A DNA stretch of 64,000 bases, from positions 31,081 to 95,080 of the forward strand of contig JAMCWA010000034.1 in assembly GCA_023475165.1 (NCBI GenBank). The letters run 5' to 3'. Within the stretch, counting starts at the first letter, position 1. Each line of letters begins with the position of its first letter. This document shows, in pieces, positions 5,636 through 64,000 of this stretch. A program made the translations under genes and the position numbers. The DNA comes from Bacillota bacterium. GTDB lineage: Bacteria; Bacillota; Sulfobacillia; JAMCWA01. The notes beneath the pieces are model-generated. The model ran no database searches. It saw only the letters and a list, made by a program, of their open reading frames with translations, and was not told where the DNA came from.

Positions 5636-5700
5636 CTGCGGTATAACGCGGGCAACTGGGGGTAAACTCTCCTTGAGAACTTGCCAAAGGAGGGTCCTGC

Positions 5701-6000
5701 ATGGCCTTGATTGAAGTGAAGGTGCTACCGGTGGGAACGCCAACCCCCAGTATTTCCAGCTACATCACCGCCTCCTACCAGGCTCTGGACGAATTCCCCG
5801 ACCTTCGTTACCAGGTTACTCCCACCTCCACTGTCTTAGAGGGAAACCTCGACCAGGCCCTAAGAGCCATCCGACGGATGCACGAGGCCACTTTTCAGGG
5901 GGGAGTGAAAAGGGTCGTGACCACCATCTCCATTGATGACCGGTTGGATAAGGAGTTAGACATGGATGAGGCCGTGGAGGCTGTGGTGGACGAGGTCTGA
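5701..6000 (+). CDS. MTH1187/YkoF-family protein (DUF77, thiamine-binding-like)
   Basis: Family pattern IEVKVLPVG...YQVTPTSTVLEG...GGVKRVVTTISID, with a good SD (AAAGGAGGG). Confidence 0.75.
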   Translation: MALIEVKVLPVGTPTPSISSYITASYQALDEFPDLRYQVTPTSTVLEGNLDQALRAIRRMHEATFQGGVKRVVTTISIDDRLDKELDMDEAVEAVVDEV

Positions 6001-6168
6001 GCCTCTTTGCAGATCCCCAGGCCGCCTTTTGCCGGCGCCCTTTGAACTAGCTGCTTTGTTTCAGGGTAGCATGAAAAGTAAGGTCTTTTCCGATCCAATC
6101 CACTGGGCAGGGTAGCTCTTTGACCCGGTGGATTTTGTTTTTTCGTGGAGAGCCTGGCCTTCCGGCTA

Positions 6169-6177
6169 TGGTATAAT
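6169..6177 (+). promoter_or_regulatory. Extended -10 promoter element (TGgTATAAT) upstream of mutS
   Basis: TATGGTATAATT in the 175-bp miaB/ykoF–mutS gap. Confidence 0.4.
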
Positions 6178-6230
6178 TGGGGACGAGGATTGCCAAAGGC
6201 GACCATGTTTTTGAGGAGGATTTCAATCGC

Positions 6231-9026
6231 TTGGACTCCGCCACCCCCATGCAATCACAATACCTGGCCATAAAGAGGGAACACCAGGACAAGATCCTCT
6301 TTTTCCGGTTGGGCGACTTCTACGAGATGTTTTACGAAGATGCTGAAGTAGCCGCCAGGGAGCTGGAGATCACCTTGACCTCGCGGGAGGGCGGACGAAA
6401 TCAGCGCGTCCCCATGGCGGGTATCCCCTACCATGCCGCCGATTCCTACATTTCCCGACTAATCGAAAAGGGATACAAGATCGCCATTTGTGAGCAGATG
6501 GAGGACCCGCGCTTGGCTAAAGGCCTGGTCCGGCGGGAGGTGGTTCGGATCATCACTCCGGGGACCGCGGTGGATACCCGCCTGCTCGACGATAAAAGCA
6601 GCAACTATCTGGTCAGTCTTGCGGGCTCCAGCCAACTCGTCCCCCGGGAGGGAGCCGTAACCTCGCCAGCCGATGCCGGGCGAACAGGAGCGCCCTCTCT
6701 CGTTGACCGTCCGGGTAGCTTTTCCCCTGACCCCTCGCCGGTTACCAAACCAGTCGTGCCAAGGGATAGTGAGGCTTTCGGCCTGGCCCTGGTGGAAGCC
6801 TCCACCGGGGAATTTGCGGTAACGGAGTTTTCTGGACCGGACGCCCTGAACCGTCTTCTGGAGGAGCTAGGCCGTCTGGAGCCCCGGGAGTGCCTTCTCG
6901 CGCCGACCCTGCAGGGCCACACGCGGCTAAACTCCTTTCTCAAGGAGCAACTGCGCGCCACTGTCACCCCTTACCGCCCGGAGTTTTACGATCCGGCTTT
7001 GGCCCGGCGCAAGCTTCTTGATCAGTTGCAGGTAGTTTCCTTGCGCGGCTTCGGCTGTGATGACCTGCTCTTGGCCATTGCGGCGGCGGGGGCCTTGCTT
7101 CATTACCTGGAGGAAACCCAAAAGACAACCCTGACCCATATCAACCGCCTGCGCACCTATCATCCCGAAGAATACATGGTCTTGGATGCCGCCACCAGGC
7201 GCCATCTGGAGCTAGTGCGTCGTTTTCCCGATGGAGCCAGAAAAGGGAGCCTGCTTTGGGCCCTGGACGAAACGGTGACGGCCATGGGGGGACGCCTTCT
7301 CCGAGAGTGGATCGAGAGGCCCCTGAAGGATCTGGTCAACATCCAGGCCAGACTGCAGAGTGTTCGCCAGTTGGTAGAGGACGCCTTTCTCCGAACGGAT
7401 TTGCGGGACCTCTTCCGTTCGGTGCTCGACCTGGAACGCCTCCTGGGGAAGGTCATTTACGGGACGGCCACACCCCGTGATCTCTTAGCCCTCCGGCAAT
7501 CCTTGTCCGTCTTGCCCAAGATCAAAGGTTTGCTGACTGCTCGGGCAGCAGAAGCTGGAGCCGAAGGGGGACAACCCGATCCTTACTTCCCGGAGCTTTT
7601 GTCCAGGCTGGCCCGGGAAATCGAGCCCCTAACTGACCTGGAGGACTTGATTCAGAGGGCCCTTCGTGAGGATGCCCCTCTGTCCGCGCGGGAAGGAGGG
7701 ATCATTCGGGAAGGCTTTCATTCTGAGGTAGACCGGCTGCGAGAAGCTCAAAGGGAAGGTAAGAATTGGATTGCTGCCCTGGAAGGGCAGGAACGCGAAA
7801 AAACGGGGATCAAGTCTCTCAAGGTGGGGTTTAATAAGGTCTTCGGCTATTATTTGGAGGTGACCAATCCCAACTTGCCCCTGGTGCCCGCTTACTATCT
7901 CCGTAAGCAGACTTTGGCCAACGCCGAGCGCTACATCACTCCGGAATTAAGGGAGAAGGAAGACTTAATCCTCGGGGCGGAGGAGCGCTTGAGCAAATTA
8001 GAATACGAGATCTTTTCCCAGCTGCGCGAACAGGTAGCCGGTCGGGCCGCCCCGATTCAAGCCAGCGCCCGGGCCATCGCTCAATTGGATGCACTGGCTT
8101 CCCTGGCTGAGGTGAGCCGACGTCATGATTACCAGGAACCCAGTCTGACTCAGGATAGTGTTATTCTTCTGAAGGAAGCTCGCCATCCTGTCCTAGAGAG
8201 GATCTTGCCGACGGGAACCTTTGTTCCCAATGATGTATTCATTGACGGGGAGGAAGACCGTGTCCTGATCATCACCGGACCCAATATGGGCGGCAAGTCC
8301 ACCTACATGCGTCAGACCGCTCTGAACGTCCTTCTGGCCCAGATGGGTTGCTTCGTTCCGGCGCGGGAGGCGCGCATCGGTTTGGTGGATCGGCTCTTCA
8401 CCCGGATCGGGGCCTGGGATGACCTGTCCTCCGGGCAGAGCACCTTCATGGTGGAAATGGCGGAGGTGGCCAACATCCTTAACCATGCCACCTCTCGCAG
8501 TCTGGTGTTGCTGGACGAGATCGGGCGGGGCACCAGTACCTTTGACGGGTTGGCCATCGCCTGGGCGGTGGTGGAATACCTGCAAAACAAGGAGCGCCTC
8601 GGAGCCAGGACCCTCCTGGCCACCCACTACCGTGAACTCATCGAGCTGGAGGATCTCCTGGAGGGGGTAAAAAACTACTCGGTGGCGGTCCGAGAAAAAG
8701 GGGAGGAGATGGTATTCCTGCGTCGCGTGGTACGGGGCGGAGCCGACGGCAGTTATGGGATACAGGTGGCCCGCTTGGCTGGTATTCCGGCTCACGTCAT
8801 TGCCCGGGCCAAAGAAATCCTACACACCCTGGAGAACCGGGAGCAGGTCAAGAGAGGTAACCGGCGCCGGTCTGCCCGCAACCAGGCTGGCTACGTCCAA
8901 CTGACCTTCTTTGAACCCCTTTTGGAGCCCGTTCTGGAGGAAATCAGGAGCCTGGATGTGATGAACCTCACCCCGCTGGAGGCCCTGCAAAAGATTCATG
9001 CCTGGCAGGAAAGGTTGAAGAAGTGA
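6231..9026 (+). CDS. mutS: DNA mismatch repair protein MutS
   Basis: TPMQSQYLAIKREH...LFFRLGDFYEMF and a Walker A motif (GPNMGGKST). The ORF-track start at 6177 overlaps an extended -10 (TGgTATAAT, 6169-6177). TTG 6231 sits 10 nt from a GAGGAGGA SD, and ATG 6252 is an alternative. The connector region carries a roughly 50-aa P/S-rich insertion at about 6627-6780. Confidence 0.88.
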   Translation: MDSATPMQSQYLAIKREHQDKILFFRLGDFYEMFYEDAEVAARELEITLTSREGGRNQRVPMAGIPYHAADSYISRLIEKGYKIAICEQMEDPRLAKGLVRREVVRIITPGTAVDTRLLDDKSSNYLVSLAGSSQLVPREGAVTSPADAGRTGAPSLVDRPGSFSPDPSPVTKPVVPRDSEAFGLALVEASTGEFAVTEFSGPDALNRLLEELGRLEPRECLLAPTLQGHTRLNSFLKEQLRATVTPYRPEFYDPALARRKLLDQLQVVSLRGFGCDDLLLAIAAAGALLHYLEETQKTTLTHINRLRTYHPEEYMVLDAATRRHLELVRRFPDGARKGSLLWALDETVTAMGGRLLREWIERPLKDLVNIQARLQSVRQLVEDAFLRTDLRDLFRSVLDLERLLGKVIYGTATPRDLLALRQSLSVLPKIKGLLTARAAEAGAEGGQPDPYFPELLSRLAREIEPLTDLEDLIQRALREDAPLSAREGGIIREGFHSEVDRLREAQREGKNWIAALEGQEREKTGIKSLKVGFNKVFGYYLEVTNPNLPLVPAYYLRKQTLANAERYITPELREKEDLILGAEERLSKLEYEIFSQLREQVAGRAAPIQASARAIAQLDALASLAEVSRRHDYQEPSLTQDSVILLKEARHPVLERILPTGTFVPNDVFIDGEEDRVLIITGPNMGGKSTYMRQTALNVLLAQMGCFVPAREARIGLVDRLFTRIGAWDDLSSGQSTFMVEMAEVANILNHATSRSLVLLDEIGRGTSTFDGLAIAWAVVEYLQNKERLGARTLLATHYRELIELEDLLEGVKNYSVAVREKGEEMVFLRRVVRGGADGSYGIQVARLAGIPAHVIARAKEILHTLENREQVKRGNRRRSARNQAGYVQLTFFEPLLEPVLEEIRSLDVMNLTPLEALQKIHAWQERLKK

Positions 9027-11119
9027 TGGCAAGAATCCGGGTGCTGTCCGAGGACACCATTCGTAAGATCGCCGCCGGTGAAGTGGTGGAACGGCCGGCT
9101 TCGGTCGTCAAGGAACTGGTAGAAAACTCCCTGGATGCCGGAGCCAAAAGGGTCTACATCGAGATTGAGGGCGGCGGCAGTGAACTGATCCGGGTAGTGG
9201 ACGACGGGGAGGGGATTCCGGAAGAGCAACTTCCCCTGGCCTTGGAACGTCATGCTACCAGCAAGATTCGCCAGGCGGAGGATCTCTACTGCATCACCAG
9301 CCTGGGTTTCCGAGGAGAAGCGTTGCCCAGCATTGCCGCCGTTTCCTTTCTCGAGATTCTATCGCGTCCCCCTGGTCAGACGGCGGGCACCCGCCTGGCT
9401 TTGGAGGGGGGTAAGCAGATCGCCCTGGAAGAGAGCCCTTCTCCCCAGGGAACCACCATAACCGTCCGTCAGCTTTTCTTCAATACCCCAGCCCGCAAGA
9501 AGTTCCTCAAGACGTCCGCAGCCGAGGCGGCTCAGGTGGCCGATACGGTCTTGAAGCTGGCTGTGGCCCGTCCCGAGGTAGCCTTCCGTTTGGTGCGGGA
9601 TGGCCGACCGGTACTGGCCACAGGCGGGGAAGGGAATCTCCTGGTCACGGTAGCCGATCTTTTCGGGAGCGAACTGGCGCGGGGGCTCATCGCCATCAGG
9701 GGGGAAGAGTCTGATCGTGACCAGGACGTCCGGATGAGGAGAGGCTCGCCTCCTGCCACCAGTCACCCCGGAGCTACGCCGGACCCATCCGAGTCCACCC
9801 CGAGCGAGAGGAGCGGTACTGCTCAAACCAGGCCCGCCAGGACGCCAGCTTCCAATGGAGAACCCTGGTCGCGTCCGCGCCTAAGCGGTCTTCTGGGCCG
9901 ACCCGAGCTGGCCAGAGGTAAGCGGAGCCACCAGTACCTCTTCTTAAATGGGCGGGTCATAAAGAACCCTGGTTTGCGGGCGGTGGTGGAAGAAGCCTAC
10001 GGACGGCTGTTGACTCCGGGGCGCTACCCGATTTTCTTTGTTTACCTGGAAATGGATCCGACCGGTTTCGACGTCAACGTCCATCCGGGCAAGCACGAGG
10101 TCAGGTTTTACCGGGAAAAGGAGATCCGCTCCCTCCTGTATCAGGCTGTGCGGAGTTCTCTGGCCAGGGGCCAGTTGATCCCGGAGATAGGTCTGGCCGA
10201 AGGATACGGACAGCGCCGACCAGGGGACAGCCGGTTGGCCCTGGCGGAGGCGGGTATGGTCTGGCCCGACCGGCTTTTCGAGGCCGCGAGCGCCGGCAAG
10301 TCGTCAGATGCGGGGAAGGATGCATGCACGGGGGAAGTGATCGAATCTAACCCCTCTCTTCGGACCGACAAGAGCGGGAACCCTGGCGCGACCGGAACAG
10401 AGGAGCTCGGGCGTCCCTCGCCAGAGTCGGCCGAGGTCGCCGCGAACGGGGGAGGGAATCAATCTGCCGCTAACGCTTGGTGGTGGCACGATGGCTTTGC
10501 CCAGCTTCGTCTATCTCTGCAGACCGCACCCAGCGAGAGCGGTCTGCCTGAGCTCCGCATCCTGGGACAACTGGGTGCCAGCTATATCCTGGCGGAAGGG
10601 GGGGACGGTCTCTACTTCCTGGACCAACATGCCGTCCACGAACGCATTTTTTACGACTACTTTTTGCGACAAAAGGGCAAAATGGATAACGGGAACCAGG
10701 AATACCTATTTCCCCCTGTTTTTGAGCTGTCCCCCCTGGAGTATTCTTGGTGGGAAGAAGCCCGCGAACAACTAAGGGAGTTGGGGATGGTCACCCGCGA
10801 ATTCGGTGGTACCAGCGTCCTGGTTCAGGCGGCTCCCGCGGAGCTGGAGCAACATCTGGATCGAACCCTTTTTCTGGATCTCTTGACTCGACTCCATGAG
10901 GAGTCGTCTGCGAGCCTTGATCACTGGGGTAGGGCGGTCACGGCCCTGGCCGCCTGCCAGGCCGCCGTCAAGGCCAGGGACAGGCTCTCCCACCCCGAGA
11001 TGGAGCGTCTCGTCTCGGACCTGGCCCAATGTCAGGATCCCTTTCATTGCCCACATGGACGCCCGACTTTTTTAAAGATAACTTATCAAAAACTGGAGCA
11101 GTACTTCCGGCGAAAATAG
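9026..11119 (+). CDS. mutL: DNA mismatch repair protein MutL
   Basis: Classic GHKL N-terminus (IRVLSEDTIRKIAAGEVVERPASVVKELVENSLDAGA) and a C-terminal dimerisation/endonuclease region. The start overlaps the mutS stop. The linker is long and low-complexity. Confidence 0.9.
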   Translation: MARIRVLSEDTIRKIAAGEVVERPASVVKELVENSLDAGAKRVYIEIEGGGSELIRVVDDGEGIPEEQLPLALERHATSKIRQAEDLYCITSLGFRGEALPSIAAVSFLEILSRPPGQTAGTRLALEGGKQIALEESPSPQGTTITVRQLFFNTPARKKFLKTSAAEAAQVADTVLKLAVARPEVAFRLVRDGRPVLATGGEGNLLVTVADLFGSELARGLIAIRGEESDRDQDVRMRRGSPPATSHPGATPDPSESTPSERSGTAQTRPARTPASNGEPWSRPRLSGLLGRPELARGKRSHQYLFLNGRVIKNPGLRAVVEEAYGRLLTPGRYPIFFVYLEMDPTGFDVNVHPGKHEVRFYREKEIRSLLYQAVRSSLARGQLIPEIGLAEGYGQRRPGDSRLALAEAGMVWPDRLFEAASAGKSSDAGKDACTGEVIESNPSLRTDKSGNPGATGTEELGRPSPESAEVAANGGGNQSAANAWWWHDGFAQLRLSLQTAPSESGLPELRILGQLGASYILAEGGDGLYFLDQHAVHERIFYDYFLRQKGKMDNGNQEYLFPPVFELSPLEYSWWEEAREQLRELGMVTREFGGTSVLVQAAPAELEQHLDRTLFLDLLTRLHEESSASLDHWGRAVTALAACQAAVKARDRLSHPEMERLVSDLAQCQDPFHCPHGRPTFLKITYQKLEQYFRRK

Positions 11120-12282
11120 AGGACAACAATTGCGCCCAAGCAGATGGTGTCATTCAGCGGTCTCAAGGGGGTGGTTTTCTGCCCGAGTCAAGTATCGAAG
11201 GTAAGGAGAAAGGCCAAGGCGCCGCCCGCCACCGCCACCGAGGGCCCGAGCAAAGACGCGAGGAAGACCACGCCAGGGGCGGGCCGCTCCTGGTTCTGGC
11301 GGGTCCGACCGCTGTGGGAAAGACTGAACTGAGCATCCGCCTGGCCAAAGAGGTGGGAGGAGAGATCATTAACGCCGACTCCACCCTGGTATACCGCTTC
11401 CTCGATGTCGGTACGGCCAAACCAACCGTGGCGGAAAGGCAGGGTGTTCCGCACCACCTCATTGACATCCTTGACCCCAACCAACCCTTTAGCGTGGCCG
11501 AGTTCTGCGTCCTGGCGAGGCAAGTTATCGTCCAGGTACAAAGCCGGCGCCACTTGCCTATCCTCGTTGGTGGAACAGGGCTTTACTTAAAGGCGCTGGT
11601 AGAAGGGTATGAATTCGCCGAAACGCAGGCCGATATGGGTTTCCGGGACTACCTCCGCCGGTTAGCCCAGGCCCAAGGTCCGGTGGCACTCCACAGCCGC
11701 CTAACCCAGGTGGACCCGGGGAGAGCCGCCAGAATCCATCCCCACGACGTCAAACGGGTCATCCGGGCCCTCGAGATTCATCAGCAATTGCACAGCCCCA
11801 TGAGTCAAGTGGAGGCTGCGCGGGCACCAGGATACGAGGTTCTTTTCCTTGTCCTGACCAGGCCCCGGGAGACCCTCTACCGGCGCATCGATCAGCGGGT
11901 CCTGGGGCAGATTAGGGCGGGACTGGTAGAGGAAGTGGCTCTTCTCTTGTCGCGTGGTTACGACCCACAGCTCTTCCCCTTGCGGAGTCTGGGTTACAAG
12001 GAGATCATTGCCTATCTCAAGGGGCTCTGTAGCCTGGAAGAAGCCATTCGGCTCATCCAGCGCAATACCCGGCGATTGGCCAAACGGCAATTGACCTGGT
12101 TTAAGGGACAGAAGGGAATAACCTGGATTGAGGTCGGAGAAAATACTGAAGAAACTCTAGCAGCGATTACCAGACAGGTGGAAGAAAAGTGGGGCCCTCT
12201 GGAAAGAGGCCTAGCTCACCCCTCAAGCGATCAATTGCTCAGAAAAAAGACTGGCGAGGAAGAGGGATGTCTGGTAAAATAA
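11029..12282 (+). CDS. miaA: tRNA dimethylallyltransferase
   Basis: P-loop (GPTAVGKTELSIRLAKE) and conserved core. The only canonical in-frame starts (ATG 11029, TTG 11047) lie inside mutL and would add a roughly 85-aa low-complexity extension, and a repeat fragment sits at 11124-11167. The true start is probably downstream and non-canonical. Confidence 0.75.
   Translation: MSGSLSLPTWTPDFFKDNLSKTGAVLPAKIEDNNCAQADGVIQRSQGGGFLPESSIEGKEKGQGAARHRHRGPEQRREEDHARGGPLLVLAGPTAVGKTELSIRLAKEVGGEIINADSTLVYRFLDVGTAKPTVAERQGVPHHLIDILDPNQPFSVAEFCVLARQVIVQVQSRRHLPILVGGTGLYLKALVEGYEFAETQADMGFRDYLRRLAQAQGPVALHSRLTQVDPGRAARIHPHDVKRVIRALEIHQQLHSPMSQVEAARAPGYEVLFLVLTRPRETLYRRIDQRVLGQIRAGLVEEVALLLSRGYDPQLFPLRSLGYKEIIAYLKGLCSLEEAIRLIQRNTRRLAKRQLTWFKGQKGITWIEVGENTEETLAAITRQVEEKWGPLERGLAHPSSDQLLRKKTGEEEGCLVK
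11124..11167 (+). repeat. Repeat family, terminal fragment (copy 2)
   Basis: ACAATTGCGCCCAAGCAGATGGTGTCATTCAGCGGTCTC aligns to the boxA end. It lies inside the mutL 3' end and the miaA 5' region. Confidence 0.6.
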
Positions 12283-53794: not shown

Positions 53795-54025
53795 ATGCCG
53801 CGTCGTAATCGCAAGCTGGTACCAAAGGCAGAGCGCAAGCTTGACCAGTTGAAGTACGAGGTGGCCGATGAACTAGGGCTAGACGACGATATCGAAAACC
53901 GTGGCTGGGAGAATATGACTACCCGTGAAGTCGGCAAGATCGGCGGCAATATGGTGCGACGCATGGTTCGTTTCGCCGAGAAAGAAATGCCGATGGAGCA
54001 AAACGAAAATGGCAAGAGCAGCTAG
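53795..54025 (+). CDS. Small acid-soluble spore protein, alpha/beta type
   Basis: LVPKAERKLDQLKYEVADELGL...GKIGGNMVRRMVRFAEKE. SD is GGGGGTG. Confidence 0.7.
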   Translation: MPRRNRKLVPKAERKLDQLKYEVADELGLDDDIENRGWENMTTREVGKIGGNMVRRMVRFAEKEMPMEQNENGKSS

Positions 54026-54912: not shown

Positions 54913-56490
54913 ATGCAGGAATTTTGCCAGGTTCCACGAAATATGATAAAGAACCTGCTGGCCATCGTGCTGAAGGCGGCAGGAAAACGACTTAAGGAGG
55001 TTGAAAAACAGGTGTCGGACAAGTCACTACCAGTCGAAAAGGTCCCCGCTGGTTACGGACCCCCCTGGGAACGGGGCGAGGAGATGCCGGCCACGCTTCC
55101 CTTTAACTGGTCTAACGCGTGGAAGGTTATCGGCCCCGGCTTTATTCTCCTTTCTCTCTCCATTGGCAGCGGCGAGTGGCTCATGGGCCCTGCCAGCGTC
55201 CTGAAGTACGGCACCTTCGTCCTATGGATCGTTTCCATCGGCATCATCACGCAAGCTGCTTTTAACCTGGTCATGACCAAGTATACCCTTTACACCGGTG
55301 AGCCGATCATGGTTGGGCTTACCCGCCTGGCACCGGGACCGTCCCTTTGGGTACCAATATGGGTGTTGATTTCGGTCGTCTCCATTGGGCCTGGCTGGGC
55401 CGCTGGTTCCGCTACCGCCATGGCGGCCATGTTCATGGGACGCATGCCCGGCAATGCTGACAAGGCCGTGGTTCTTGGGTCGGGCGTCGTCCTCTTTCTT
55501 ACCACTGTTTTCATCCTCATGTTCGGCGGTAAAGTCGAAGCCTGGCTGGAAAAGGTCAATAAGTGGATCGTCTATTTCATCTTTGGCAGCCTCTTCATCC
55601 TGGTTATCCTTTTTGCCCCCTTTGATAAATGGATCGAAGTGGCCGGTGGCTTCTTCAAGTTCGGCCAGTTGCCCAAAGGCAAGGTGGATTGGTTCCTCCT
55701 GGCCGGACTGGCCGGCTATGCCGGGGCCGGCGGCATCTTGAACATGGGTGTCACCAACTGGTATCGCGACAAGGGCTACGGCATGGGTGCGGTTGTCGGC
55801 TATATTCCCTCCCTCGTTGGTGGCAAGGAAATCCGCGTGGCCAAAAGCGGCAGGGTTCCACCCCAGAATCAAACCACCTTGGAAAGGTTCAAGGATTGGT
55901 GGAGATACGTGGTCCTCGACCAGATCGGCGTCTGGACCGTTGGAGCCTTCGTAGGTATGTTCCTAACGGTTCTTCTCTCCTATTCCATGGTCCCCACGGG
56001 CACCAACATGGACGGTTGGGCGGCCGCTGCCCACCAGGCCGAAGGTGTTGGTAAGGTGATGGGCTCCCTCGGCTGGTACTGGGTTTTGATGATCGGTTTC
56101 TGGGTCCTGTACGGTACCCAGCTTTCCAACAGCGATAGTTTCGTACGACAGATGTCTGACCTCCTCTGGGTAGCCAGCCCGTGGGTGCGGGAAAAGCTTT
56201 CCAAAGAGGACATTCGCCGCCTCTACTACGGCTTGCTCATCCTCTTCACCATCTGGTCCATTTATCTGGCCTTCCAGGGGACGCCTATGTTCCTGGTGGC
56301 CTTCATGGCCAACGCCGCCAACCTGGCCTTCACCGTGGGAGGTTTGCAGCTCCTTTTCCTGGAAAAATTCTATCCGAAGGAATTGAAGACCCCCCTCTGG
56401 GCCAAGGCGTTGATCGTCCTCCTGGTCCTCTTCTATGGTGCCTTCACGTTCATTGGTTTCGGGACCAAGTTCTTTGGCCTGAAGCTCTAA
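54913..56490 (+). CDS. Nramp-like (MntH-related, divergent) polytopic membrane transporter
   Basis: GPGFILLSLSIGSGEWLMGPA resembles the Nramp GPGFL...DPGN region. About 11 TM helices. Confidence 0.5.
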   Translation: MQEFCQVPRNMIKNLLAIVLKAAGKRLKEVEKQVSDKSLPVEKVPAGYGPPWERGEEMPATLPFNWSNAWKVIGPGFILLSLSIGSGEWLMGPASVLKYGTFVLWIVSIGIITQAAFNLVMTKYTLYTGEPIMVGLTRLAPGPSLWVPIWVLISVVSIGPGWAAGSATAMAAMFMGRMPGNADKAVVLGSGVVLFLTTVFILMFGGKVEAWLEKVNKWIVYFIFGSLFILVILFAPFDKWIEVAGGFFKFGQLPKGKVDWFLLAGLAGYAGAGGILNMGVTNWYRDKGYGMGAVVGYIPSLVGGKEIRVAKSGRVPPQNQTTLERFKDWWRYVVLDQIGVWTVGAFVGMFLTVLLSYSMVPTGTNMDGWAAAAHQAEGVGKVMGSLGWYWVLMIGFWVLYGTQLSNSDSFVRQMSDLLWVASPWVREKLSKEDIRRLYYGLLILFTIWSIYLAFQGTPMFLVAFMANAANLAFTVGGLQLLFLEKFYPKELKTPLWAKALIVLLVLFYGAFTFIGFGTKFFGLKL

Positions 56491-56790: not shown

Positions 56791-57150
56791 TTGGAAGGCG
56801 CACTGATCTGGCTGCTGGTGGCTTTCCTCAAAAGTCTGCGACTGCTGCATGGCTATCTCAGTAGTAACACCTTTCCCCAACCCCTGAGTGAAGAGGAGGA
56901 AACCCGCTACCTTAAGTTGCATGAAAAGGGCGATCTGAAGGCTAAAGGTGTACTGGTGGAAAGGAACCTGCGCCTGGTGGCCCACGTGGTGAAAAAATTC
57001 GGCAACATCCCGGATTCGGAGGATCTCATTTCAATAGGCACCGTAGGGCTGATCAAGGCCATTGACACCTTCGACCGTAAGAAGGGCACCAAGTTGGCCA
57101 CCTATGCGGCGCGCTGTATTGAAAACGAAATCTCAAAGACAGCACCTTAG
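56791..57150 (+). CDS. sigK: RNA polymerase sigma-K factor, 5' portion only (pro-sequence plus region 2); gene interrupted by an intervening element
   Basis: [23 protein letters not shown]...[13 protein letters not shown]...[17 protein letters not shown]...[17 protein letters not shown] is colinear with SigK. It then diverges (SKTAP*) into AT-rich DNA at about 57135. TTG 56791 has a GGGGGTG SD (the ORF-track GTG at 56758 is an alternative). A CATACTATA sigE/sigK-type -10 lies upstream. Confidence 0.8.
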
Positions 57151-57580
57151 CTATATTTTGGGGCTGTTTTGGGTGATTTTTAGCTAAAAGAAGATGATAG
57201 GGACAGAAATTAAACCATAATAAAATATTGAAATTTTTTTGAAAACTAGCAGGAAATTTCGAGTTTGTAGCTAATAAAATTAGTAGCTGCCAAAAGTGAA
57301 TATTATAGGGAATGATGGGGGTGGAAGAGACCCTTGCGGGCGCCGTAGGAGTAATTTATCGCGAGGTGGCGCGATAAAGAACCTCTCAGGCAAAAGGACT
57401 ACTCCCGAACCCAACTCTGGAGAGTTTCCTTAAAGTATGTTTTAAGGAGCGCCAAAGGGGAAAGCAGAGGATTGCTAATCTCTCAGGCAAGAGGTGATTG
57501 GCAGGAATCGTACGTAGGTGTGAGGTGCTCCGTGTTGCCGCAAGGCGGGGGGAGAATTGTGTGAAGGGAGGTGAGGTAAC

Positions 57581-57796
57581 ATGCCCGTGCTGGTTCATGA
57601 GGGGATTTACCAGATCCATTGGTGCATCCACAGCGGATCTGCAGCACTGCCCCTTTCCCTGACCAACCGAGCATCGGCGGAGGAGGCTTCGAAGATCGTC
57701 GAGAAGGGACTAATGGGGATGCGCGGACAGCGGATCCTGGAGCAGTTGTTTGCGAACAAGATGGCACTGTCGGAGGCGTTGTCGTGGGAGAAATGA
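57581..57796 (+). CDS. Small ORF (71 aa), candidate precursor peptide of the downstream radical-SAM operon
   Basis: Strongest SD in the region (GGGAGGTGAGG, 5-nt spacing). An aromatic/His-rich N-terminus (HEGIYQIHWCIHS) and a C-terminal ...LSWEK. A 10-bp-stem hairpin follows before the rhodanese gene. Confidence 0.35.
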   Translation: MPVLVHEGIYQIHWCIHSGSAALPLSLTNRASAEEASKIVEKGLMGMRGQRILEQLFANKMALSEALSWEK

Positions 57797-57823
57797 GTTG
57801 CGTCAGTGCACCGCGCGGTGGCC

Positions 57824-57855
57824 AGGGGGTCCGCCGCCTTCGTGACGGACCCCCT
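57824..57855 (+). promoter_or_regulatory. Stable hairpin between the small ORF and the rhodanese gene (putative attenuator / mRNA-processing structure)
   Basis: AGGGGGTCCG-12 nt-CGGACCCCCT, a 10-bp GC stem with no U-tract. Preceded by the palindrome CACCGCGCGGTG. Confidence 0.4.
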
Positions 57856-57894
57856 ACTGTGCGAAGAACGGAGTCAGAGAGGAGAGGATCACAT

Positions 57895-58233
57895 ATGCAA
57901 ATTGACGCCATAACAAAAGAGGAGTTGCTGTCCATGTATGGTAATCCAGACGTCATTGTACTCAATGTCCTTCCCCGCGACTGGTTTGAGCGTGCCCATA
58001 TCCTGGGGTCGATCTCAATCCCCGTGGAAGAGTTGGCGGGTCGCTTGGACTGTTTACCTAGCGACAAGCTCATCGTTACGTACTGCGCAAGCTACGGGTG
58101 TACCTCCTGTGTCGAGGCGGCGCAGTTCTTGGCCAGCCACGGCTTTAACGTCAAGGTTTACAGAGGTGGGACCAAGGAGTGGATGGAAGCCGGTCTTCCG
58201 TGGGAGGGCAGCGAAAGAGACCATGAGCCCTGA
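57895..58233 (+). CDS. Rhodanese-domain protein (single-domain sulfurtransferase)
   Basis: ATG 57895 with a GGAGAGGA SD. Rhodanese fold with a Cys loop (TYCASYGCTSC). The long upstream extension in the ORF track is low-complexity and rejected. Confidence 0.7.
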   Translation: MQIDAITKEELLSMYGNPDVIVLNVLPRDWFERAHILGSISIPVEELAGRLDCLPSDKLIVTYCASYGCTSCVEAAQFLASHGFNVKVYRGGTKEWMEAGLPWEGSERDHEP

Positions 58234-59434
58234 TCATCCTCTCGCGATCCTACGCGATTCCCCGCTGTACGCTTCGGACCCACGTTTCCGACGCAGAGCG
58301 GATATGCGACTGGCTCGGGAGCAGAAGTTTGCCACCCTGCGCCTGTTCAACCTCGACATAGAGGTTACCACGGTTTGCAACCTAGCTTGTAGGACCTGCT
58401 ACAATCTACCGGCCCAGACACAGATTATGAGAGTGGAGGAGTTCAGCCATATCCTGGCGGACGCACGGCAGCTTGTCGGTCGTCTGGGCATGGATGGGCT
58501 CTGGCTGACGATTTCCGGTGGAGAGCCGTTAATGAATGAACACCTTTGGGACATGCTTCGGCTGGCCCAAGCCCAAGGCGTTGAAGGTATTGCCATCATC
58601 ACTAATGGCACCCTCGTCAACGAAGAAACGGCAAAGCGGATTCGATCTCTGGGGATCTCAGAAGTCATGATATCGCTCGATGGGGCTAGCGAGCGGATAC
58701 ACGATGCCATCCGGGGCCTCGGGTCGTTTGCAAGGACCATCGGCGGCGTTAAGGCTATGATGGAGCACTGTTCCGGTACATTCCTTGGCTGCACACTGAC
58801 CCTTACCAAGCTAAACATGGACGAGATCAAAGCTTACGTCGATTTCGCCTTCGACCTGGGGTTCAACTATGCGTGGATCAATCCCCCGCTTTACTGCGGG
58901 CGTATGGTGCAATCACAGCTTAGCATCTCGTACGAGGAACACATAAGAGTGATGAATCTCGTTAGAGAACTCGACACCAGGTACTTCAGGCAGGGTTTCG
59001 CGGTGTACTATAATGTCCCGTACTACCCGCTTACTGATCCGATCTCTCCCTATTTGGATCTGAGCACGGCCTGCCCCTGGGGTCGCAACAACCTAACTGT
59101 CACCACCGACGGCTCAGTCCTCCCTTGCTTGTACAGTCGCGACTTACGTTTGGGGAATGCCTTCGAACAGCCCCTAGTCGCCCTCTACCAATCATCTGTG
59201 CTGAAGGGGTTCCGTGACGGATCGCTGCTCGCTGAGCCGTGCCGTTCCTGCTCCTACCGGGGATTCTGCGGGGGCTGCCGTGCTAGAACGTACTATCTCA
59301 CCGGGGACTGGTTCGCTGCCGACCCTTGGTGCCCGCTTGTCCGGGGCTCCACTGAGGAGCAACTCAGGGTGTTTCCCTCGGGTTTGCCAAAAGAAAACGT
59401 GGGAGGGATGCAGCATAACAGAACGGTCGACTAA
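58223..59434 (+). CDS. Radical SAM enzyme with C-terminal SPASM domain (peptide/cofactor-modifying type)
   Basis: CNLACRTCY (CxxxCxxC) and the SPASM cysteine array (CPWG...C...CRSCSYRGFCGGCRARTY...CP). No N-terminal RRE is present. Confidence 0.85.
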   Translation: MSPDHPLAILRDSPLYASDPRFRRRADMRLAREQKFATLRLFNLDIEVTTVCNLACRTCYNLPAQTQIMRVEEFSHILADARQLVGRLGMDGLWLTISGGEPLMNEHLWDMLRLAQAQGVEGIAIITNGTLVNEETAKRIRSLGISEVMISLDGASERIHDAIRGLGSFARTIGGVKAMMEHCSGTFLGCTLTLTKLNMDEIKAYVDFAFDLGFNYAWINPPLYCGRMVQSQLSISYEEHIRVMNLVRELDTRYFRQGFAVYYNVPYYPLTDPISPYLDLSTACPWGRNNLTVTTDGSVLPCLYSRDLRLGNAFEQPLVALYQSSVLKGFRDGSLLAEPCRSCSYRGFCGGCRARTYYLTGDWFAADPWCPLVRGSTEEQLRVFPSGLPKENVGGMQHNRTVD

Positions 59435-59447
59435 CGGGGGCCTACCC

Positions 59448-60611
59448 GTGTCCTACTACATCAGGCGTTATGTCGTCGCCCTTTGCCTTCTGGAGTTCTT
59501 TGCCTTTAAGATCCTCGATCCGTACTATATCCAGTTCATGACCACGGAGCGGGGACTTGGTCTCACCCCTACCCAATTTGGCTTATTTGTGTCCCTGGCC
59601 TCGGCGGTCACCTCCGCTATCGACTACTTGTCCGGAGCCTTTGCAGACCGGCTGGGCCGGCGACTCTCTTGGGGGCTGGCAATGTTTTCTTACGGGCTAG
59701 GCATGCTATGGCTGAGTTCGGTTTCTGCCTTTGGACCTGCGCTGGTCACTGCTGTGTTCATGGGGACTTCCTACGCCTTCGCGAGCGGCGCACGCGAAGC
59801 TTGGCTCTACGATAATGTCGGCCAAGAGGGCACGCGGCAGGCCTTCGGTAAGGTCTACCTTTACTCGGTCCCGTTTACCATGCTAGGCATGGGGGCGGCG
59901 TTCGGTTTGGGCGGCCTGGGCAGCCTGCGCCTCCCGATCGCCTTGACCGGCCTTATCGTCCTGGCCGACGGCTTGTTTATCATGACCTTCCCAGAGAACT
60001 ATGGCAGTTACCGCCGCCGCGGATGGCTGGAGGTCCTCAAGGTCGGGTTCCGCCAGTTTCTGGAGAGCCGTGTTCTGTGGCTGACGGCAGCCCAGAGCTT
60101 CTTCTTCACCCTCCCTATCTGGATTACCACCGCCTGGTGGATAACCTACCTGGTGCAGCAGTTCGGCGTAGACTTGAGGGACACAGCCCTTGCCTTCGGC
60201 GTTACTTCGCTGGCTGCAGCAATGACCGGGTTTTGCATCTGCAAGATGAAGGCCACCGACTACCGCAAGCTTATCCTTTGGCCGACACTGTTATCGTCGT
60301 TGGCTTTCCTGCTGATGCCCTTGGCTCCTACGCCGTGGGCTTTCGTGGCCCTGGTCATCGCGGCGGTTGCCTCCGGCTACTTCAGGGGGAGCGGCATCAC
60401 TCTCTTGGAGAACGAGCAGATCAGTGAGGAGCGGGCGACGGCACTCTCGTTCTTGAACACCCTGCGTAGCGCATTCTGGGCGGTGGCTCCTCTCTTGTGG
60501 GGTGCCCTTATCTCCGCCTTTGGACTTGAGGTCGCATTCTTTCTCGCAGGAGCAGCTTCGCTGATCTCTCTGCTCCTGCTGATACTTGCGTTAGCGCTAA
60601 GGGGTGGCTAG
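59448..60611 (+). CDS. MFS transporter (putative exporter)
   Basis: GTG 59448 with a GGGGG SD. About 12 TM helices and a DRLGRR loop. Confidence 0.7.
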   Translation: MSYYIRRYVVALCLLEFFAFKILDPYYIQFMTTERGLGLTPTQFGLFVSLASAVTSAIDYLSGAFADRLGRRLSWGLAMFSYGLGMLWLSSVSAFGPALVTAVFMGTSYAFASGAREAWLYDNVGQEGTRQAFGKVYLYSVPFTMLGMGAAFGLGGLGSLRLPIALTGLIVLADGLFIMTFPENYGSYRRRGWLEVLKVGFRQFLESRVLWLTAAQSFFFTLPIWITTAWWITYLVQQFGVDLRDTALAFGVTSLAAAMTGFCICKMKATDYRKLILWPTLLSSLAFLLMPLAPTPWAFVALVIAAVASGYFRGSGITLLENEQISEERATALSFLNTLRSAFWAVAPLLWGALISAFGLEVAFFLAGAASLISLLLLILALALRGG

Positions 60612-60613
60612 CC

Positions 60614-61984
60614 ATGAAAGGGATTGTTGTGCCCGAGCGACCCTACCACCTATCTTGGGACCTCACTACGGCGTGCCGACTTCACTGTAGCTTCTGCTAC
60701 AGCGCTGGAGGAAGGCCCCACCCGGCCGAAACTACCGAGCTAATTGAAACGATCCTCGACAATGTGGTGGAACTGAAACCACTACACCTAGGCATCGGCG
60801 GGGGAGATCCCCTGTTAAGCCCGTACATTGCCGAACTATTGCAGCGGCTAGTGGAACGAATGAGGGACGAGACACCAATCATCACCGTGGACACTATGAT
60901 GGTGAACCGACGAGAGGATCTGGTCCGGCAGGTCCGGCGACTCAACGAGGATTTCGGAGAACACCGGATACAGTTCTACCTGAGCATCCACGGGGCCCCC
61001 GAGGTTCATGACCGAATCGTTGGACTCAAGGGGCACTTCGAGGAACAGGTGGAGGGCATCAAGCTCCTAAAGCAGTACGGGGTCAACTTCAACTTGGGTA
61101 TCGTACCGACGAGGGAAAACCTTGACCAACTCGACGCAATGCTTGCCTTGGCCCTGCGTCTGGGCGCTGGTCTCCTCAACATCTCCCAATTCGTCCCTAT
61201 CGGGAGGGGTGACCGGGCATACGATCACAACCTGAGCCCCGAGCAGTACCGTCGGCTCCTGGACTGGATCGTGACGCGTAATGCTCAACTCCGCCGGCGC
61301 TACATAGTGACCCACGAGCACTGGATGGCGGCTGTTGATCAGGCGCTTTTTACGAGCAGCCTTTTTGTTGGTTGCAGCGCTGGGATTTACTACTTCGGCG
61401 TACGCAGCAATGGCGATGTCGTTCCTTGTCAGCTTAACCCGTATGTGCTCGGCAATGTCCGGGAGGCAAGACTGACCGAGATCTGGCGGTGGCACCCCTT
61501 GCTGCAACGATGGAGGGAGCGGCGCGTTGACGGCCGATGTGGCGATTGCCCCCTGCTCTTCAAGTGCGGAGGCTGCCGGTGCAACGCTGTGGCGTACTCC
61601 GGCGACTTTTTCGGTGAAGATTCACTTTGTCCCTTTGCAGCAGAAGAGTTAATCAGCCTGAATCAAACGGGCCAAGAGGTTAACGCCACAGCAGTCAATG
61701 GCAGCTTGTCGGAAACAGCCATTAGGAATGACATGTGGATTGTAAAGCTGGTTACGCTTGCCACCCCGCAAGGCGATTCTTTGGTCATCCGCAACGAGCC
61801 CCGAAACACTTTCGTTGAGCTTAACGGTGACGCGACCATCATCTACGGCCTGGTTCCGCCACAATATGGGATCACGTTAGGTGACCTCAGGGCTGTCTTT
61901 AAGGAGCGCACAGGCAAGGAACTGCCCGTGGAGGAATTGGGGGCACTAGTCCGTTCGGGGGTCCTAGGATGCGTAGCCGGATAA
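60614..61984 (+). CDS. Radical SAM/SPASM enzyme with C-terminal PqqD-like RiPP-recognition element
   Basis: CRLHCSFCY; SPASM array (CSAG...C...GRCGDCPLLFKCGGCRC...CP). The C-terminal 100 aa (LVIRNEPRNTFVELNGDATIIYGL...LGDLRAVFKERTG) resemble PqqD/RRE. Confidence 0.85.
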   Translation: MKGIVVPERPYHLSWDLTTACRLHCSFCYSAGGRPHPAETTELIETILDNVVELKPLHLGIGGGDPLLSPYIAELLQRLVERMRDETPIITVDTMMVNRREDLVRQVRRLNEDFGEHRIQFYLSIHGAPEVHDRIVGLKGHFEEQVEGIKLLKQYGVNFNLGIVPTRENLDQLDAMLALALRLGAGLLNISQFVPIGRGDRAYDHNLSPEQYRRLLDWIVTRNAQLRRRYIVTHEHWMAAVDQALFTSSLFVGCSAGIYYFGVRSNGDVVPCQLNPYVLGNVREARLTEIWRWHPLLQRWRERRVDGRCGDCPLLFKCGGCRCNAVAYSGDFFGEDSLCPFAAEELISLNQTGQEVNATAVNGSLSETAIRNDMWIVKLVTLATPQGDSLVIRNEPRNTFVELNGDATIIYGLVPPQYGITLGDLRAVFKERTGKELPVEELGALVRSGVLGCVAG

Positions 61985-63144
61985 CATACTCCGTGCAGGC
62001 GCGGCACGTTGAGATACGCCGGGGGCGCGTTTGCGGAGTCAGAACTTACGAGGACTCCCAGGCTCATTTCGTGACGTACTTCGGGCGAACCGTCGTTGTG
62101 GACGGTGCTTGCGGACCGAGAGTGTTCACGCTTCCTCGGGCTGCTGAATGGGAACCAGACCCTGTGCATTTGGACGTCGACCGAGGTCTTCTCGAGAAAG
62201 AACGCTTGCTTGTTGCTGTTGATGTAGTGGCGAGCTATCCCGTCGATGCCGCGCTTTCGTTTTATCGGGAGGAACGGGTGGTAGAGACCGATGGCTTTGT
62301 CAAGCGCCAGTGCATAGGCTTCTATGCCTTACGGCTTCGAGAACAGTCCAGATCCTATGTGTACGCTGACGTTGCTCCCGAGAAGTTGGGTGAGCTGTGT
62401 GCTCTGCACACGCTGCCCCAGGGCGCACCCGTTCCAGACGGGCTACCGATTGTCCTAAGCCCCAACGCTGTTGGCCATATCTTTCACGAGTGGGCCCATC
62501 TACTAGAACTTGACTTTTTAGGGCATGAGGCTGCGTCGCGTATCGAGGGCAGCCCGGTCTTTGACGACTGTGCGGATCTCCAGGTCTTCGAAGATCCTGG
62601 GACAGAGACCGTGGGATTCAATGCTTTCAGCGACGACGCCCGAATCGCTAGGCGGATGCCTCTTGTAGAGCGAGGCAGGATAGCGGGGTTCATAGACAGC
62701 GCCGCATTCCCACACCGCTACTTCGGGTGCGGATATCTCGGATACAACAATAGCGGCCATCCTGTTCCTCGCACGACCAACCTCATGGTTCAGGCTAGGC
62801 CAACGGCATACGAGGTCGAGCGAGCACTAGTGGTCACTGGACTTGACCTGGAACTCTTGACCGCAGATCCCCTCCATGCTCGGATCGGCCTCAAGAGTAG
62901 CGAGGGTGTTTACGTGGAGCACGGGATGCCGGTACACCGAGTAACTTGGACGGGTGGGGGCGAAACGACGGTCCAGAGGCTAGTATCGAGCATGATGTTT
63001 CTTAACCCCTCGCATATCCGCGTCCCCGTAGTTGGTGGAATTTGTGTCAAAAATGGCATCGCGGTTCGCTCCGCTCAGAGCGCGCCAGCAGCGCTGCTTG
63101 AGGCTTGTACGGCGCGCTTACCGTGGAAGAACTTGTCGGCATGA
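61969..63144 (+). CDS. TldD/PmbA-family metallopeptidase-like protein
   Basis: HEWAH motif and a C-terminal G-rich PmbA_TldD-like segment (GYNNSGHPVPRTTNLMV). The start overlaps the previous gene. Confidence 0.55.
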   Translation: MRSRITYSVQARHVEIRRGRVCGVRTYEDSQAHFVTYFGRTVVVDGACGPRVFTLPRAAEWEPDPVHLDVDRGLLEKERLLVAVDVVASYPVDAALSFYREERVVETDGFVKRQCIGFYALRLREQSRSYVYADVAPEKLGELCALHTLPQGAPVPDGLPIVLSPNAVGHIFHEWAHLLELDFLGHEAASRIEGSPVFDDCADLQVFEDPGTETVGFNAFSDDARIARRMPLVERGRIAGFIDSAAFPHRYFGCGYLGYNNSGHPVPRTTNLMVQARPTAYEVERALVVTGLDLELLTADPLHARIGLKSSEGVYVEHGMPVHRVTWTGGGETTVQRLVSSMMFLNPSHIRVPVVGGICVKNGIAVRSAQSAPAALLEACTARLPWKNLSA

Positions 63145-63642: not shown

Positions 63643-64000
63643 CTATATTTCCTTCATTTCACTAAGGGGCAAGGCCCGGCAACGCGAAATTTGGCAACAG
63701 CCCCATGACCGCACTGGTACACATTTTTCCTTGCCAAACCCACCGCGGGCGTACTGGAAGATCTCTTCGATGGCCTCTGGTGTGAAGAGGGGGGAGGTGC
63801 GCCCCGCCACCTTCAGGTGGTGGGCGATGTACTCCCTGGTTTCCGGGGCGGTGAGTCCGCGCATGTGGTACCGCACCGTGAGCCGCTGCGTGATGTGGTC
63901 GTAGCAGGAGAGCCGGAGCATGTCCCGCAGGGGGGGCTGGTCCACGAGGATGAGCGCCATGGGGCAGGTGCTCTCCATGGCGATGTTGGTGAGCAGCCTG
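63643..64000 (-). CDS. ExeA/TniB-like AAA+ ATPase (transposition helper), C-terminal part; continues past the window end
   Basis: QRLTVRYHMRGLTAPETREYIAHHLKVAGRTSPLFTPEAIEEIFQYARG matches the ExeA/TniB C-terminal signature. The ORF stays open to position 64000. Confidence 0.5.
   Translation of the reverse strand, partial: RLLTNIAMESTCPMALILVDQPPLRDMLRLSCYDHITQRLTVRYHMRGLTAPETREYIAHHLKVAGRTSPLFTPEAIEEIFQYARGGFGKEKCVPVRSWGCCQISRCRALPLSEMKEI

Follow-up and report, generated by a model that had tools for sequence, protein, structure and literature searches.

What is made by six tightly packed genes that lie just behind a broken sporulation sigma-factor gene in a member of the Bacillota? The genes span positions 57581-63144 of a 64,000-nucleotide stretch of contig JAMCWA010000034.1 (the window, by which that whole stretch is meant), and the original prediction, made from the sequence alone, read them as a maturation operon for a peptide made by ribosomes and modified after translation (RiPP), carried as cargo of a sigK intervening element. 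Our analysis suggests that the operon probably directs the synthesis of a RiPP, most likely one that is cross-linked and exported, and that its family is uncharacterised and works within the well-known logic of pathways in which a radical S-adenosylmethionine (rSAM) enzyme with a SPASM domain is paired with a RiPP recognition element (RRE). Radical-SAM RiPPs, such as darobactin, streptide, and the sactibiotics, have been a productive source of peptide chemistry and antibiotics.

All six genes lie on the + strand, co-directional and abutting, as seen in the open reading frame (ORF) listing, in Pfam and NCBIfam searches, and in an independent gene call; the last, made on L001, a Logan contig identical to the window sequence, supplied the gene starts used here. 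The set begins with a small ORF encoding a 71-aa candidate precursor peptide (57581-57796), followed by a 112-aa rhodanese (57895-58233; PF00581, 53.9 bits), a 403-aa radical SAM/SPASM enzyme, here rSAM1 (58223-59434; Radical_SAM 75 bits, SPASM 40 bits), a 387-aa major facilitator superfamily (MFS) transporter (59448-60611; MFS_1, PF07690, 74 bits), a second, 456-aa radical SAM/SPASM enzyme, here rSAM2 (60614-61984; Radical_SAM 64.6 bits, SPASM 44 bits), and a 391-aa TldD/PmbA-like metallopeptidase (61969-63144; PmbA_TldD_3rd, PF19289, 29.6 bits against a cut-off of 22). The domains and the tight packing were thus as originally described, with junctions of -11, +13, +2, and -16 nt from the rhodanese onward, and so was the RiPP-type architecture, consisting of a conserved small ORF, two maturase-like rSAM/SPASM enzymes (one of them an RRE fusion), a TldD-like peptidase, and an MFS protein. 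The window's copy of the operon is intact. A repeat search found no repeats flanking it, only an IS21-type element downstream, and PADLOC reported no defence system at the operon, merely a generic viperin-like radical-SAM similarity.

The small ORF is preceded by a strong Shine-Dalgarno sequence (GGGAGGTGAGG, 5 nt upstream of the start), as had been noticed, and its product carries GIYQIHWCIH at residues 8-17, then LPLSLT and a C-terminal LSxxLSWEK. A counterpart lies upstream in each of the seven bacterial lineages described below, always behind a strong Shine-Dalgarno sequence, and the suggested co-conservation of the 71-aa ORF with both rSAM genes therefore holds in seven of seven. These bacterial peptides, of 54-71 residues, have in common G-I-[YF]-Q-I-H-[WC]-C-I-H at residues 8-17, followed by LP[LF]S[LM]T, a linker whose length varies, and a C-terminal L-S-x-x-[LF]-x-[WFY]-[ED]-[KR]. 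When the window's ORF is compared with those of loci L002, L016, or L018, the differences fall mostly at third codon positions (e.g., 40 versus 16 and 8), with 20-29 synonymous codon changes, and by this codon-position pattern of substitutions the small ORF is a real gene under purifying selection. A profile search of 1.84 billion representatives returned only about eight clusters, Pfam and NCBIfam gave no family match, and a literature search yielded no paper containing a GIYQIHWCIH-type motif.

The clearest clue to the peptide's role comes from a second, archaeal-type form of the locus. Specifically, four loci (L005, L006, L023, and L024) contain, in this order, two SAM-dependent methyltransferase genes, a 23-aa ORF, and an rSAM2 homologue, without rSAM1, MFS transporter, or peptidase, and look like a minimal, methylating version of the system. 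The 23-aa ORFs are unannotated, have good Shine-Dalgarno sequences, and lie at approximately 9757-9826 in L005 (a Theionarchaea metagenome-assembled genome, MAG), 9754-9825 in L006, 2629-2700 in L023, and approximately 2338-2409 in L024. Their sequences (MPVKIHRGINQVLWHIRDSPKSK, MAVKVHKGLNQVCWHIRDSPKSK, MAVKVHKGLNQIMWHIRDSPKSK, and MPVKVHKSMYQVAWHIRGSKKKK) give the consensus M[PA]VK[VI]H[KR][GS]x[NY]Q[VI]xWHIR[DG]S..K and align with the N-terminal 20 residues of the bacterial peptide. Because these loci keep only rSAM2 and the 23-aa motif ORF of the bacterial set, the N-terminal motif and rSAM2 are the basic pair of the system. So short a product, of 23 residues, would have to be a substrate peptide rather than a folded partner protein, and we strongly infer that the 71-aa product is a substrate peptide as well.

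Across all 16 peptides, Gln11 and Ile16 are invariant, and Gly8 and Trp14 are nearly so. His13, Cys15, His17, and an extension of about 45 residues are specific to the bacteria, where they coincide with rSAM1, the peptidase, and the transporter. Cysteine is sparse throughout, with one per peptide in the bacterial versions (two in one variant), none in three of the four archaeal 23-mers, and a single one at a variable position in the fourth. Within the motif, the even residues are hydrophobic (Tyr10, Ile12, Trp14, and Ile16) and the odd ones polar (Gln11, His13, Cys15, and His17), an alternation that reads as a beta-strand pattern, the hydrophobic face of which may dock on the recognition element. 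An E-x3-W/F/Y spacing near the C-terminus, present in most bacterial peptides, was considered as a PQQ-like feature and rejected, as it is not universal, being lost in L007, L011, and P0032.

Both enzymes possess the CxxxCxxC motif and a full set of SPASM cysteines, and they are only 25% identical to each other. In rSAM1, the cysteines are arranged as CNLACRTC, then CX2CX5CX2C, then a further C; in rSAM2, eight cysteines in the SPASM region are kept without exception by 23 homologues. The nearest solved relatives of rSAM1 by sequence are PqqE (the top match among sequences of the Protein Data Bank, PDB), CteB, and SkfB, and profile matches of rSAM2 in the PDB are SkfB, PqqE, and SuiB. Likewise, an AlphaFold2 model of rSAM2 (pLDDT 79, pTM 0.83) has its best Foldseek matches in SkfB, SuiB, and the anaerobic sulfatase-maturating enzyme (anSME), with CteB also close. 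By its predicted fold, a winged helix of the PqqD-like type, the C-terminus of rSAM2 (residues 368-456; 61715-61981, + strand) is an RRE, whereas rSAM1 is a radical-SAM/SPASM enzyme without a recognition domain. The earlier pairing of one RRE-fused with one RRE-less enzyme, both recognized by Pfam as radical SAM/SPASM proteins, thus holds in essence. The PqqD-like label itself stands at the level of fold and not at that of the Pfam PqqD model, as taken up below.

How do these enzymes compare with characterised maturases? No curated RiPP-maturase model reaches its cut-off for either of them. Among NCBIfam models (scores in bits, rSAM1/rSAM2), the highest are AhbD (TIGR04545; 143/145 versus a cut-off of 500), TIGR04055 (123/139 versus 500), and TIGR04053 (119/151 versus 395), followed by PqqE (TIGR02109; 113/89 versus 381), MftC (TIGR03962; 82/122 versus 265), StsB (NF045574; 97/74 versus 625), DynA (91/58 versus 450), and AlbA (NF012164; 65/49 versus 850), with single scores of 49 versus 340 for NF047865 and 65 versus 300 for TIGR04403; anSME (TIGR03942) was not in the top list for rSAM1 and scored 49.5 versus 349 for rSAM2. 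Moreover, none of the examined loci holds a sulfatase, haem, pqq, or mft gene. Several known systems can be set aside on this basis. The sactipeptides and ranthipeptides are ruled out, as the AlbA, StsB, SkfB, PapB, and SCIFF-type models fall below cut-off and the precursor lacks several donor cysteines. Pyrroloquinoline quinone (PQQ) biosynthesis is excluded by its unreached PqqE model, the missing pqqB and pqqC, and the inconstant E-x3-aromatic spacing; mycofactocin by its unreached MftC model, the absence of linked mft genes, and a peptide ending in SWEK rather than GVY. Sulfatase maturation is ruled out by the weak anSME score and the absence of an adjacent sulfatase, the opposite combination having been named as one that would refute the RiPP interpretation, and an AhbD/NirJ-type haem-pathway enzyme by scores far below 500 and the lack of linked haem genes. 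The earlier view that the locus matches no characterised RiPP class is thus upheld by both the model scores and the literature search for the motif.

The best structural and sequence neighbours are SuiB/StrB of the streptide pathway, SkfB, CteB, and TigE. Like these maturases, the present enzymes combine CxxxCxxC with full SPASM cysteines and a precursor-docking RRE, next to an adjacent precursor gene and with exporter and protease genes in the cluster. The product of SuiB/StrB, streptide, has a Lys-Trp cross-link. The RRE is N-terminal in SuiB, CteB, and SkfB, unlike the C-terminal one predicted in rSAM2, and the precursor here is unrelated, with a single Cys and its most conserved motif at the N-terminus, and is accompanied by an RRE-less second enzyme and a TldD-like peptidase. 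The PQQ (PqqA/D/E) and mycofactocin (MftA/B/C/E) pathways share with the operon a short peptide with a highly conserved motif (the part that is modified in PQQ and mycofactocin), an rSAM/SPASM enzyme guided by a PqqD-type RRE, and a peptidase step. They differ in that the RRE is fused here rather than free-standing, that PqqB/PqqC and MftD/MftF genes are missing, and that an MFS transporter is present in every bacterial locus of a mobile, patchy distribution.

The peptidase carries the motif HEWAH (HExxH), and in six orthologues F-H-E-x-x-H-x-L-E-x-D and GGxCxK are invariant. With TldD/TldE (MEROPS M103) it has in common a PmbA_TldD C-terminal domain, the only part covered by the PF19289 match, as well as a metal-binding His motif and a conserved C-terminal Cys motif; it gave no NCBIfam match and no sequence match in the PDB. 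TldD/E-like genes also occur in pearlin clusters. TldD itself has an HExxxH motif and forms with TldE a heterodimer into which peptides are threaded, N-terminus first, as far as the point where a modification obstructs entry, and TldD/TldE removes unmodified peptide from the RiPPs microcin B17, klebsazolicin, and McC(Yps), for which the TldD/E genes are chromosomal and lie outside the biosynthetic gene cluster (PMC10885120). Here, a single gene is encoded inside the cluster, with HExxH and without a TldE partner; no second TldD/TldE-like gene was found in any examined locus. The family assignment and the HExxH motif that had been claimed are therefore both present, but the protein is TldD-like rather than a TldD orthologue.

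The MFS protein, presumably an exporter, weakly resembles the efflux pumps Tet(40) and TetA(P) and is the best-conserved gene of the operon, with 82-85% identity to the three closest lineages versus 72-76% for rSAM2. The rhodanese is a single-domain protein with the active-site loop YCASYGC and an NF041203 score of 50.6 versus a cut-off of 115. The notion of a rhodanese that serves as a required, dedicated sulfur donor was not supported by comparison, since the gene is no fixed part of the locus: it is present in only four of the seven lineages, while L018 (the closest relative), L011/L022, and the L008-type loci lack it, and because of this distribution it is an accessory rather than a defining gene. 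Of the three companion genes expected to co-occur with the rSAM enzymes, the transporter and the TldD-like peptidase do so in every bacterial locus but the rhodanese does not. The rhodanese region of L016 (1611-1994) was called as a 57-aa fragment, although tblastn aligns 105 residues at 48% identity, and is either a mis-called or a degraded gene, judging from these alignments.

Homologous loci were gathered as the contigs of rSAM2 homologues together with motif scans, and were compared with the window's proteins by tblastn. The operon family is very rare: a collection of 5.8 billion protein clusters yielded no more than 22 close homologues of rSAM2 (45-77% identity), and plasmid and phage collections held no close homologue. 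A search of genome contigs with the rSAM2 alignment gave 51 pattern matches and 0 confirmed loci and was replaced by a DNA scan for a degenerate IYQIHWCIH, which found 4 GTDB species, 4 JGI contigs, and 0 viral contigs. A five-gene core of small ORF, rSAM1, MFS transporter, rSAM2, and TldD-like peptidase occurs in the same order in seven bacterial lineages, in which rSAM2 is 47-77% identical and the genomes range from 41 to 62% GC. Because the same order recurs at this degree of divergence, it is far beyond chance, and the operon can be taken as a real unit. The lineages are the window with L001; L018; L016, L017, L019, and L020; a Caldanaerobacter-type group (L002-4, L012, L013, L015, and L021), for whose small protein the database source names C. 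subterraneus subsp. tengcongensis MB4; L007; L011 and L022; and, as the most distant bacterial branch, L008-10 and L014.

The genomic settings differ from lineage to lineage, and the cassette has therefore moved horizontally. For example, the L016 operon lies downstream of a 23S-5S rRNA operon, together with a CRP/FNR regulator, that of L007 sits behind a PAS-LuxR regulator, that of L002 adjoins IS21-type transposases, and that of L008 is next to a relaxase and a group II intron. In L008, a NikA-like/relaxase pair and the fragment of a group II intron (6714-7016 and 4616-6294) immediately precede the operon, an arrangement that points to carriage on a conjugative or mobilisable element. As a separate observation, L012, L013, and L015, which are GTDB MAGs assigned to Bacillota, Tissierellaceae, and Clostridia, have small ORFs identical or nearly identical to the Caldanaerobacter type, a result of either very recent horizontal transfer or binning contamination.

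In the window, the operon also has a visible regulatory input, and only one, which went unmentioned in the original prediction: a tandem glycine riboswitch. Aptamer 1 (57312-57411, + strand) is a full-length match to RF00504 with 53.2 bits versus a gathering threshold of 32 (E 4e-8), and aptamer 2 (57407-57506, + strand) scores 39.4 bits versus 32 when searched alone, whereas the pair as a whole scores 80 bits against the two-aptamer model RF03166, below its cut-off of 110. Thus, as in gcvT-type tandem glycine riboswitches, two adjacent aptamers above gathering are followed by one expression platform. There are deviations here at conserved positions, e.g., CGCCGUAGG and GCAAGAGG, and the genes downstream differ from the usual ones in having no known link to glycine catabolism or transport. 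The platform (57507-57580, + strand) comprises a hairpin at 57528-57554 and the Shine-Dalgarno sequence. The hairpin, at -13.4 kcal/mol, is not better than those of shuffled sequences, and minimum free energy folding of the leader was uninformative (z = -0.55). Upstream, an AT-rich junction (57133-57311, + strand, by sequence reading) separates the riboswitch from the sigK break and probably holds the operon's promoter; a scan of it returned only a weak sigma-70-like site at 57194-57221 (9/12), no better than in shuffled sequence, and inspection by eye, which is not a formal test, revealed nothing convincing by way of a sigma-E or sigma-K consensus.

From these elements a pathway can be proposed. 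The product of 57581-57796 would be the substrate, whose N-terminal strand-like motif V-x-V-H-x-G-I-Y-Q-I-H-W-C-I-H would dock on the C-terminal recognition element of rSAM2. The enzyme would then install a radical-mediated modification in or next to the motif (Q-x-x-W-x-I), of which Gln11, Trp14, and Ile16 are the universally kept residues. rSAM1 occurs only where the peptide has Cys15, His13, His17, and the C-terminal extension, and might add a second modification, such as a thioether formed by Cys15 or else a cross-link within the extension. The TldD-like peptidase would trim the unmodified part, the MFS protein would export the product, the rhodanese would be a dispensable helper, and in this genome the tandem riboswitch would gate transcription or translation of the whole set. 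We infer the order of the steps, the chemistry, the position of the core, the export, and the glycine response from what is directly seen, namely the gene content, the synteny, the coding status of the small ORF, the predicted RRE fold, the catalytic motifs, and the riboswitch match.

Several points weigh against this account of the operon. The case is built from sequence and predicted structure. The Pfam PqqD model has no match on the rSAM2 C-terminus even at E<=10, and a profile search of PDB sequences with that C-terminus gave only an insignificant winged-helix match. The peptide departs from the usual layout of conserved leader and variable core, and either end may be the core; the N-terminal "pencil-sharpener" action of TldD/E suits an N-terminal leader better than an N-terminal core (PMC10885120). 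The riboswitch is missing from all other homologous loci and could be a captured or orphan element, and its expression platform shows only a modest hairpin without a T-run. Finally, some copies of the operon are decaying: in the Caldanaerobacter-type rSAM1, a TAG stands in place of the TGG of a conserved Trp (GLW to GL*; L002 1669-1671, same codon in L003), and L012 has a frameshift (at about 1950) and a truncated rSAM2. Since several copies are decaying, the product is dispensable, and the cultured C. subterraneus strain may not make it, given its decayed copy. A selenoprotein or recoding interpretation of the in-frame stop was rejected, because the TAG replaces a Trp codon and another copy is frameshifted, both of which speak for decay.

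Could the operon serve something other than a secreted RiPP? An intracellular, peptide-derived redox cofactor made in the manner of PQQ or mycofactocin would account for a motif that stays nearly invariant while the enzymes drift to 47% identity, as PqqA and MftA do, and for a toolkit of rSAM/SPASM enzyme, RRE, and peptidase; PqqE is also the closest solved sequence relative of rSAM1, and most bacterial peptides have the E-x3-W/F/Y spacing. Yet the MFS transporter is the best-conserved gene in every bacterial locus, the operon has no linked gene for a cofactor-dependent dehydrogenase or for a PqqB/PqqC- or MftD/MftF-like protein, scores with the PqqE and MftC models stay well under their cut-offs, the spacing is lost in three peptides, and the distribution is patchy and mobile-element-associated with pseudogenised copies, all of which makes a cofactor improbable. 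Still less credible, to the point that we give it very little weight, is a role of both rSAM/SPASM enzymes in converting some small molecule, perhaps a tetrapyrrole in the way of AhbD and NirJ, with the small ORF as an accessory protein or upstream leader. Here the best NCBIfam matches of the two enzymes (AhbD, NirJ2, and TIGR04053, at 143-151 bits) are suggestive, but they fall far short of cut-offs of 395-500, no haem or sirohaem genes are linked, rSAM2 carries a predicted RRE, and the small ORF accompanies the enzymes in each lineage, whether a riboswitch is present or not, its 23-aa archaeal versions being too short to be folded proteins. A RiPP of an uncharacterised family accordingly stays the preferred explanation.

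The position of the operon raises the further question of whether it belongs to a sigK element. The 5' half of a spoIVCB-like sigK gene lies at 56827-57132 (+ strand), its ORF running on to a stop at 57150; in tblastn, residues 12-114 of B. subtilis SigK match at 63% identity and homology ends after ...ARCIENEI, the sequence at the break edge being ...TGTATTGAAAACGAAATC. NCBIfam SigK models score 158-162 bits on this N-terminal half only, and NCBI and Logan assemblies both contain the truncated product, of 119 residues. The window and L001, whose far end would correspond to position 69,390 in window numbering, showed neither residues 115-242 of SigK nor a SpoIVCA-type serine recombinase. Downstream of the operon are IS21/Mu-type transposase genes, including an insertion sequence bounded by inverted repeats (L001 7764-11173). 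This element has 21-nt inverted repeats with tandem 23-nt sub-repeats (7764-7788 and 11070-11173). An AAA_22/ExeA-like ORF on the - strand (63643-64000) is cut by the end of the window; the region continues in L001 6554-12300, where IS21/Mu-type transposase genes follow the ORF. Of the claimed intervening element, the window shows the sigK 5' half, truncated at 57132 as stated, and the remainder would lie outside. As in the skin elements of Bacillus and Clostridia, sigK is broken off mid-gene here, after the equivalent of B. subtilis residue 114, and cargo unrelated to sporulation is normal for such elements, which do not share cargo with one another (bioRxiv 10.1101/2022.02.25.481979). It differs from them in that the recombinase and the 3' half are unseen and that transposase genes stand where the cargo continues. 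What the sequence shows at the junction would fit a skin-type element, but is no demonstration of one. The sporulation-linked product of the original prediction has the truncated sigK 5' half as its sole basis. As a sigK fragment was seen at no other copy of the operon, a link to sporulation, if there is one, would have arisen by chance in this genome and would not characterise the system.

Both features of the setting therefore have to be weighed against simpler histories. It is possible, although we lean the other way, that the DNA beyond 57132, rather than being a developmentally excised skin-type element, was inserted for good, through an insertion sequence or by other means, so that sigK was inactivated and the operon has no sporulation link. 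That no recombinase or sigK 3' half appears within 12.3 kb of the junction, that transposase genes lie just downstream, that no other homologous operon has a sigK fragment, and that the 5.8-billion-cluster collection contains only the truncated 119-aa product and no full-length near-identical SigK all speak for such an event. However, the break is clean and mid-gene, directly after the ...CIENEI codons, the truncated junction recurs in more than one assembly or sample, other sporulation genes nearby are intact, and the GC content at third codon positions of the operon genes (0.61-0.74) matches that of host genes (0.685 +/- 0.02), so that compositional foreignness is not seen. Furthermore, in 15 described skin elements the recombinase is usually at the far, spoIIIC edge (bioRxiv 10.1101/2022.02.25.481979), and because this is its usual place, its absence at the present edge would be expected. 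One of the sporulation genes is a 76-aa ORF at 53795-54025 (+ strand) that reads by eye as an alpha/beta-type small acid-soluble spore protein (…REVGKIGGNMVRRMV…) and fits a spore-forming host. As for the riboswitch, it is rather unlikely, though not negligibly so, that it is an orphan, left behind from another gene after rearrangement, and plays no part in regulating this operon. The genes usually under the control of glycine riboswitches are those for glycine cleavage or transport (PMC12452182), and because of this its association with a RiPP-type operon is atypical; in addition, the other loci lack it and use other regulators, such as the CRP/FNR and PAS-LuxR proteins of L016 and L007, and folding of the platform revealed no clear terminator or anti-terminator. 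Against an orphan, both aptamers are intact and above gathering, they share the operon's strand and end 75 nt before its first start codon, without an ORF in between, and a CUCC segment of the hairpin in the platform could instead base-pair with the Shine-Dalgarno GGAGG.

Taken to its furthest, the evidence could describe a new RiPP class, in which a C-terminal-RRE rSAM/SPASM enzyme acts on an N-terminal Q-x-x-W-x-I strand in Bacillota and Theionarchaea-type archaea, to which the bacteria add another rSAM enzyme, an HExxH TldD-like peptidase of one subunit, and an MFS exporter, and which in this genome is switched on by glycine through the riboswitch and lost from the mother-cell chromosome by excision of the sigK element. 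This full combination is unlikely as it stands; if true, it would represent a metabolite-gated, development-linked secreted peptide. No general principle is changed by the locus, and its value is that of a well-defined lead for experiment. The layout is unusual in that the most conserved peptide motif is N-terminal, the predicted RRE is C-terminal, and a one-gene TldD-like peptidase is part of the cluster. The minimal version, with a 23-aa peptide and one enzyme, should be easy to reconstitute. To find a RiPP operon behind a primary-metabolite riboswitch would be unusual as a regulatory link, and, should the sigK insertion turn out to be excisable, the operon would exemplify a skin-type element that carries biosynthetic genes as cargo.

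Two smaller observations concern the surroundings. Directly upstream of sigK, at 54913-56490 (+ strand), lies a gene for a 525-aa polytopic membrane protein that matches no Pfam family at E<=0.01. Also, three independent metagenome contigs, L001, L002, and L003, begin 0.5-0.8 kb upstream of the small ORF, with position 1 of L001 corresponding to window position 57090, 43 nt before the sigK break; these shared starts may reflect assembly-graph branching at a variable junction, or chance.

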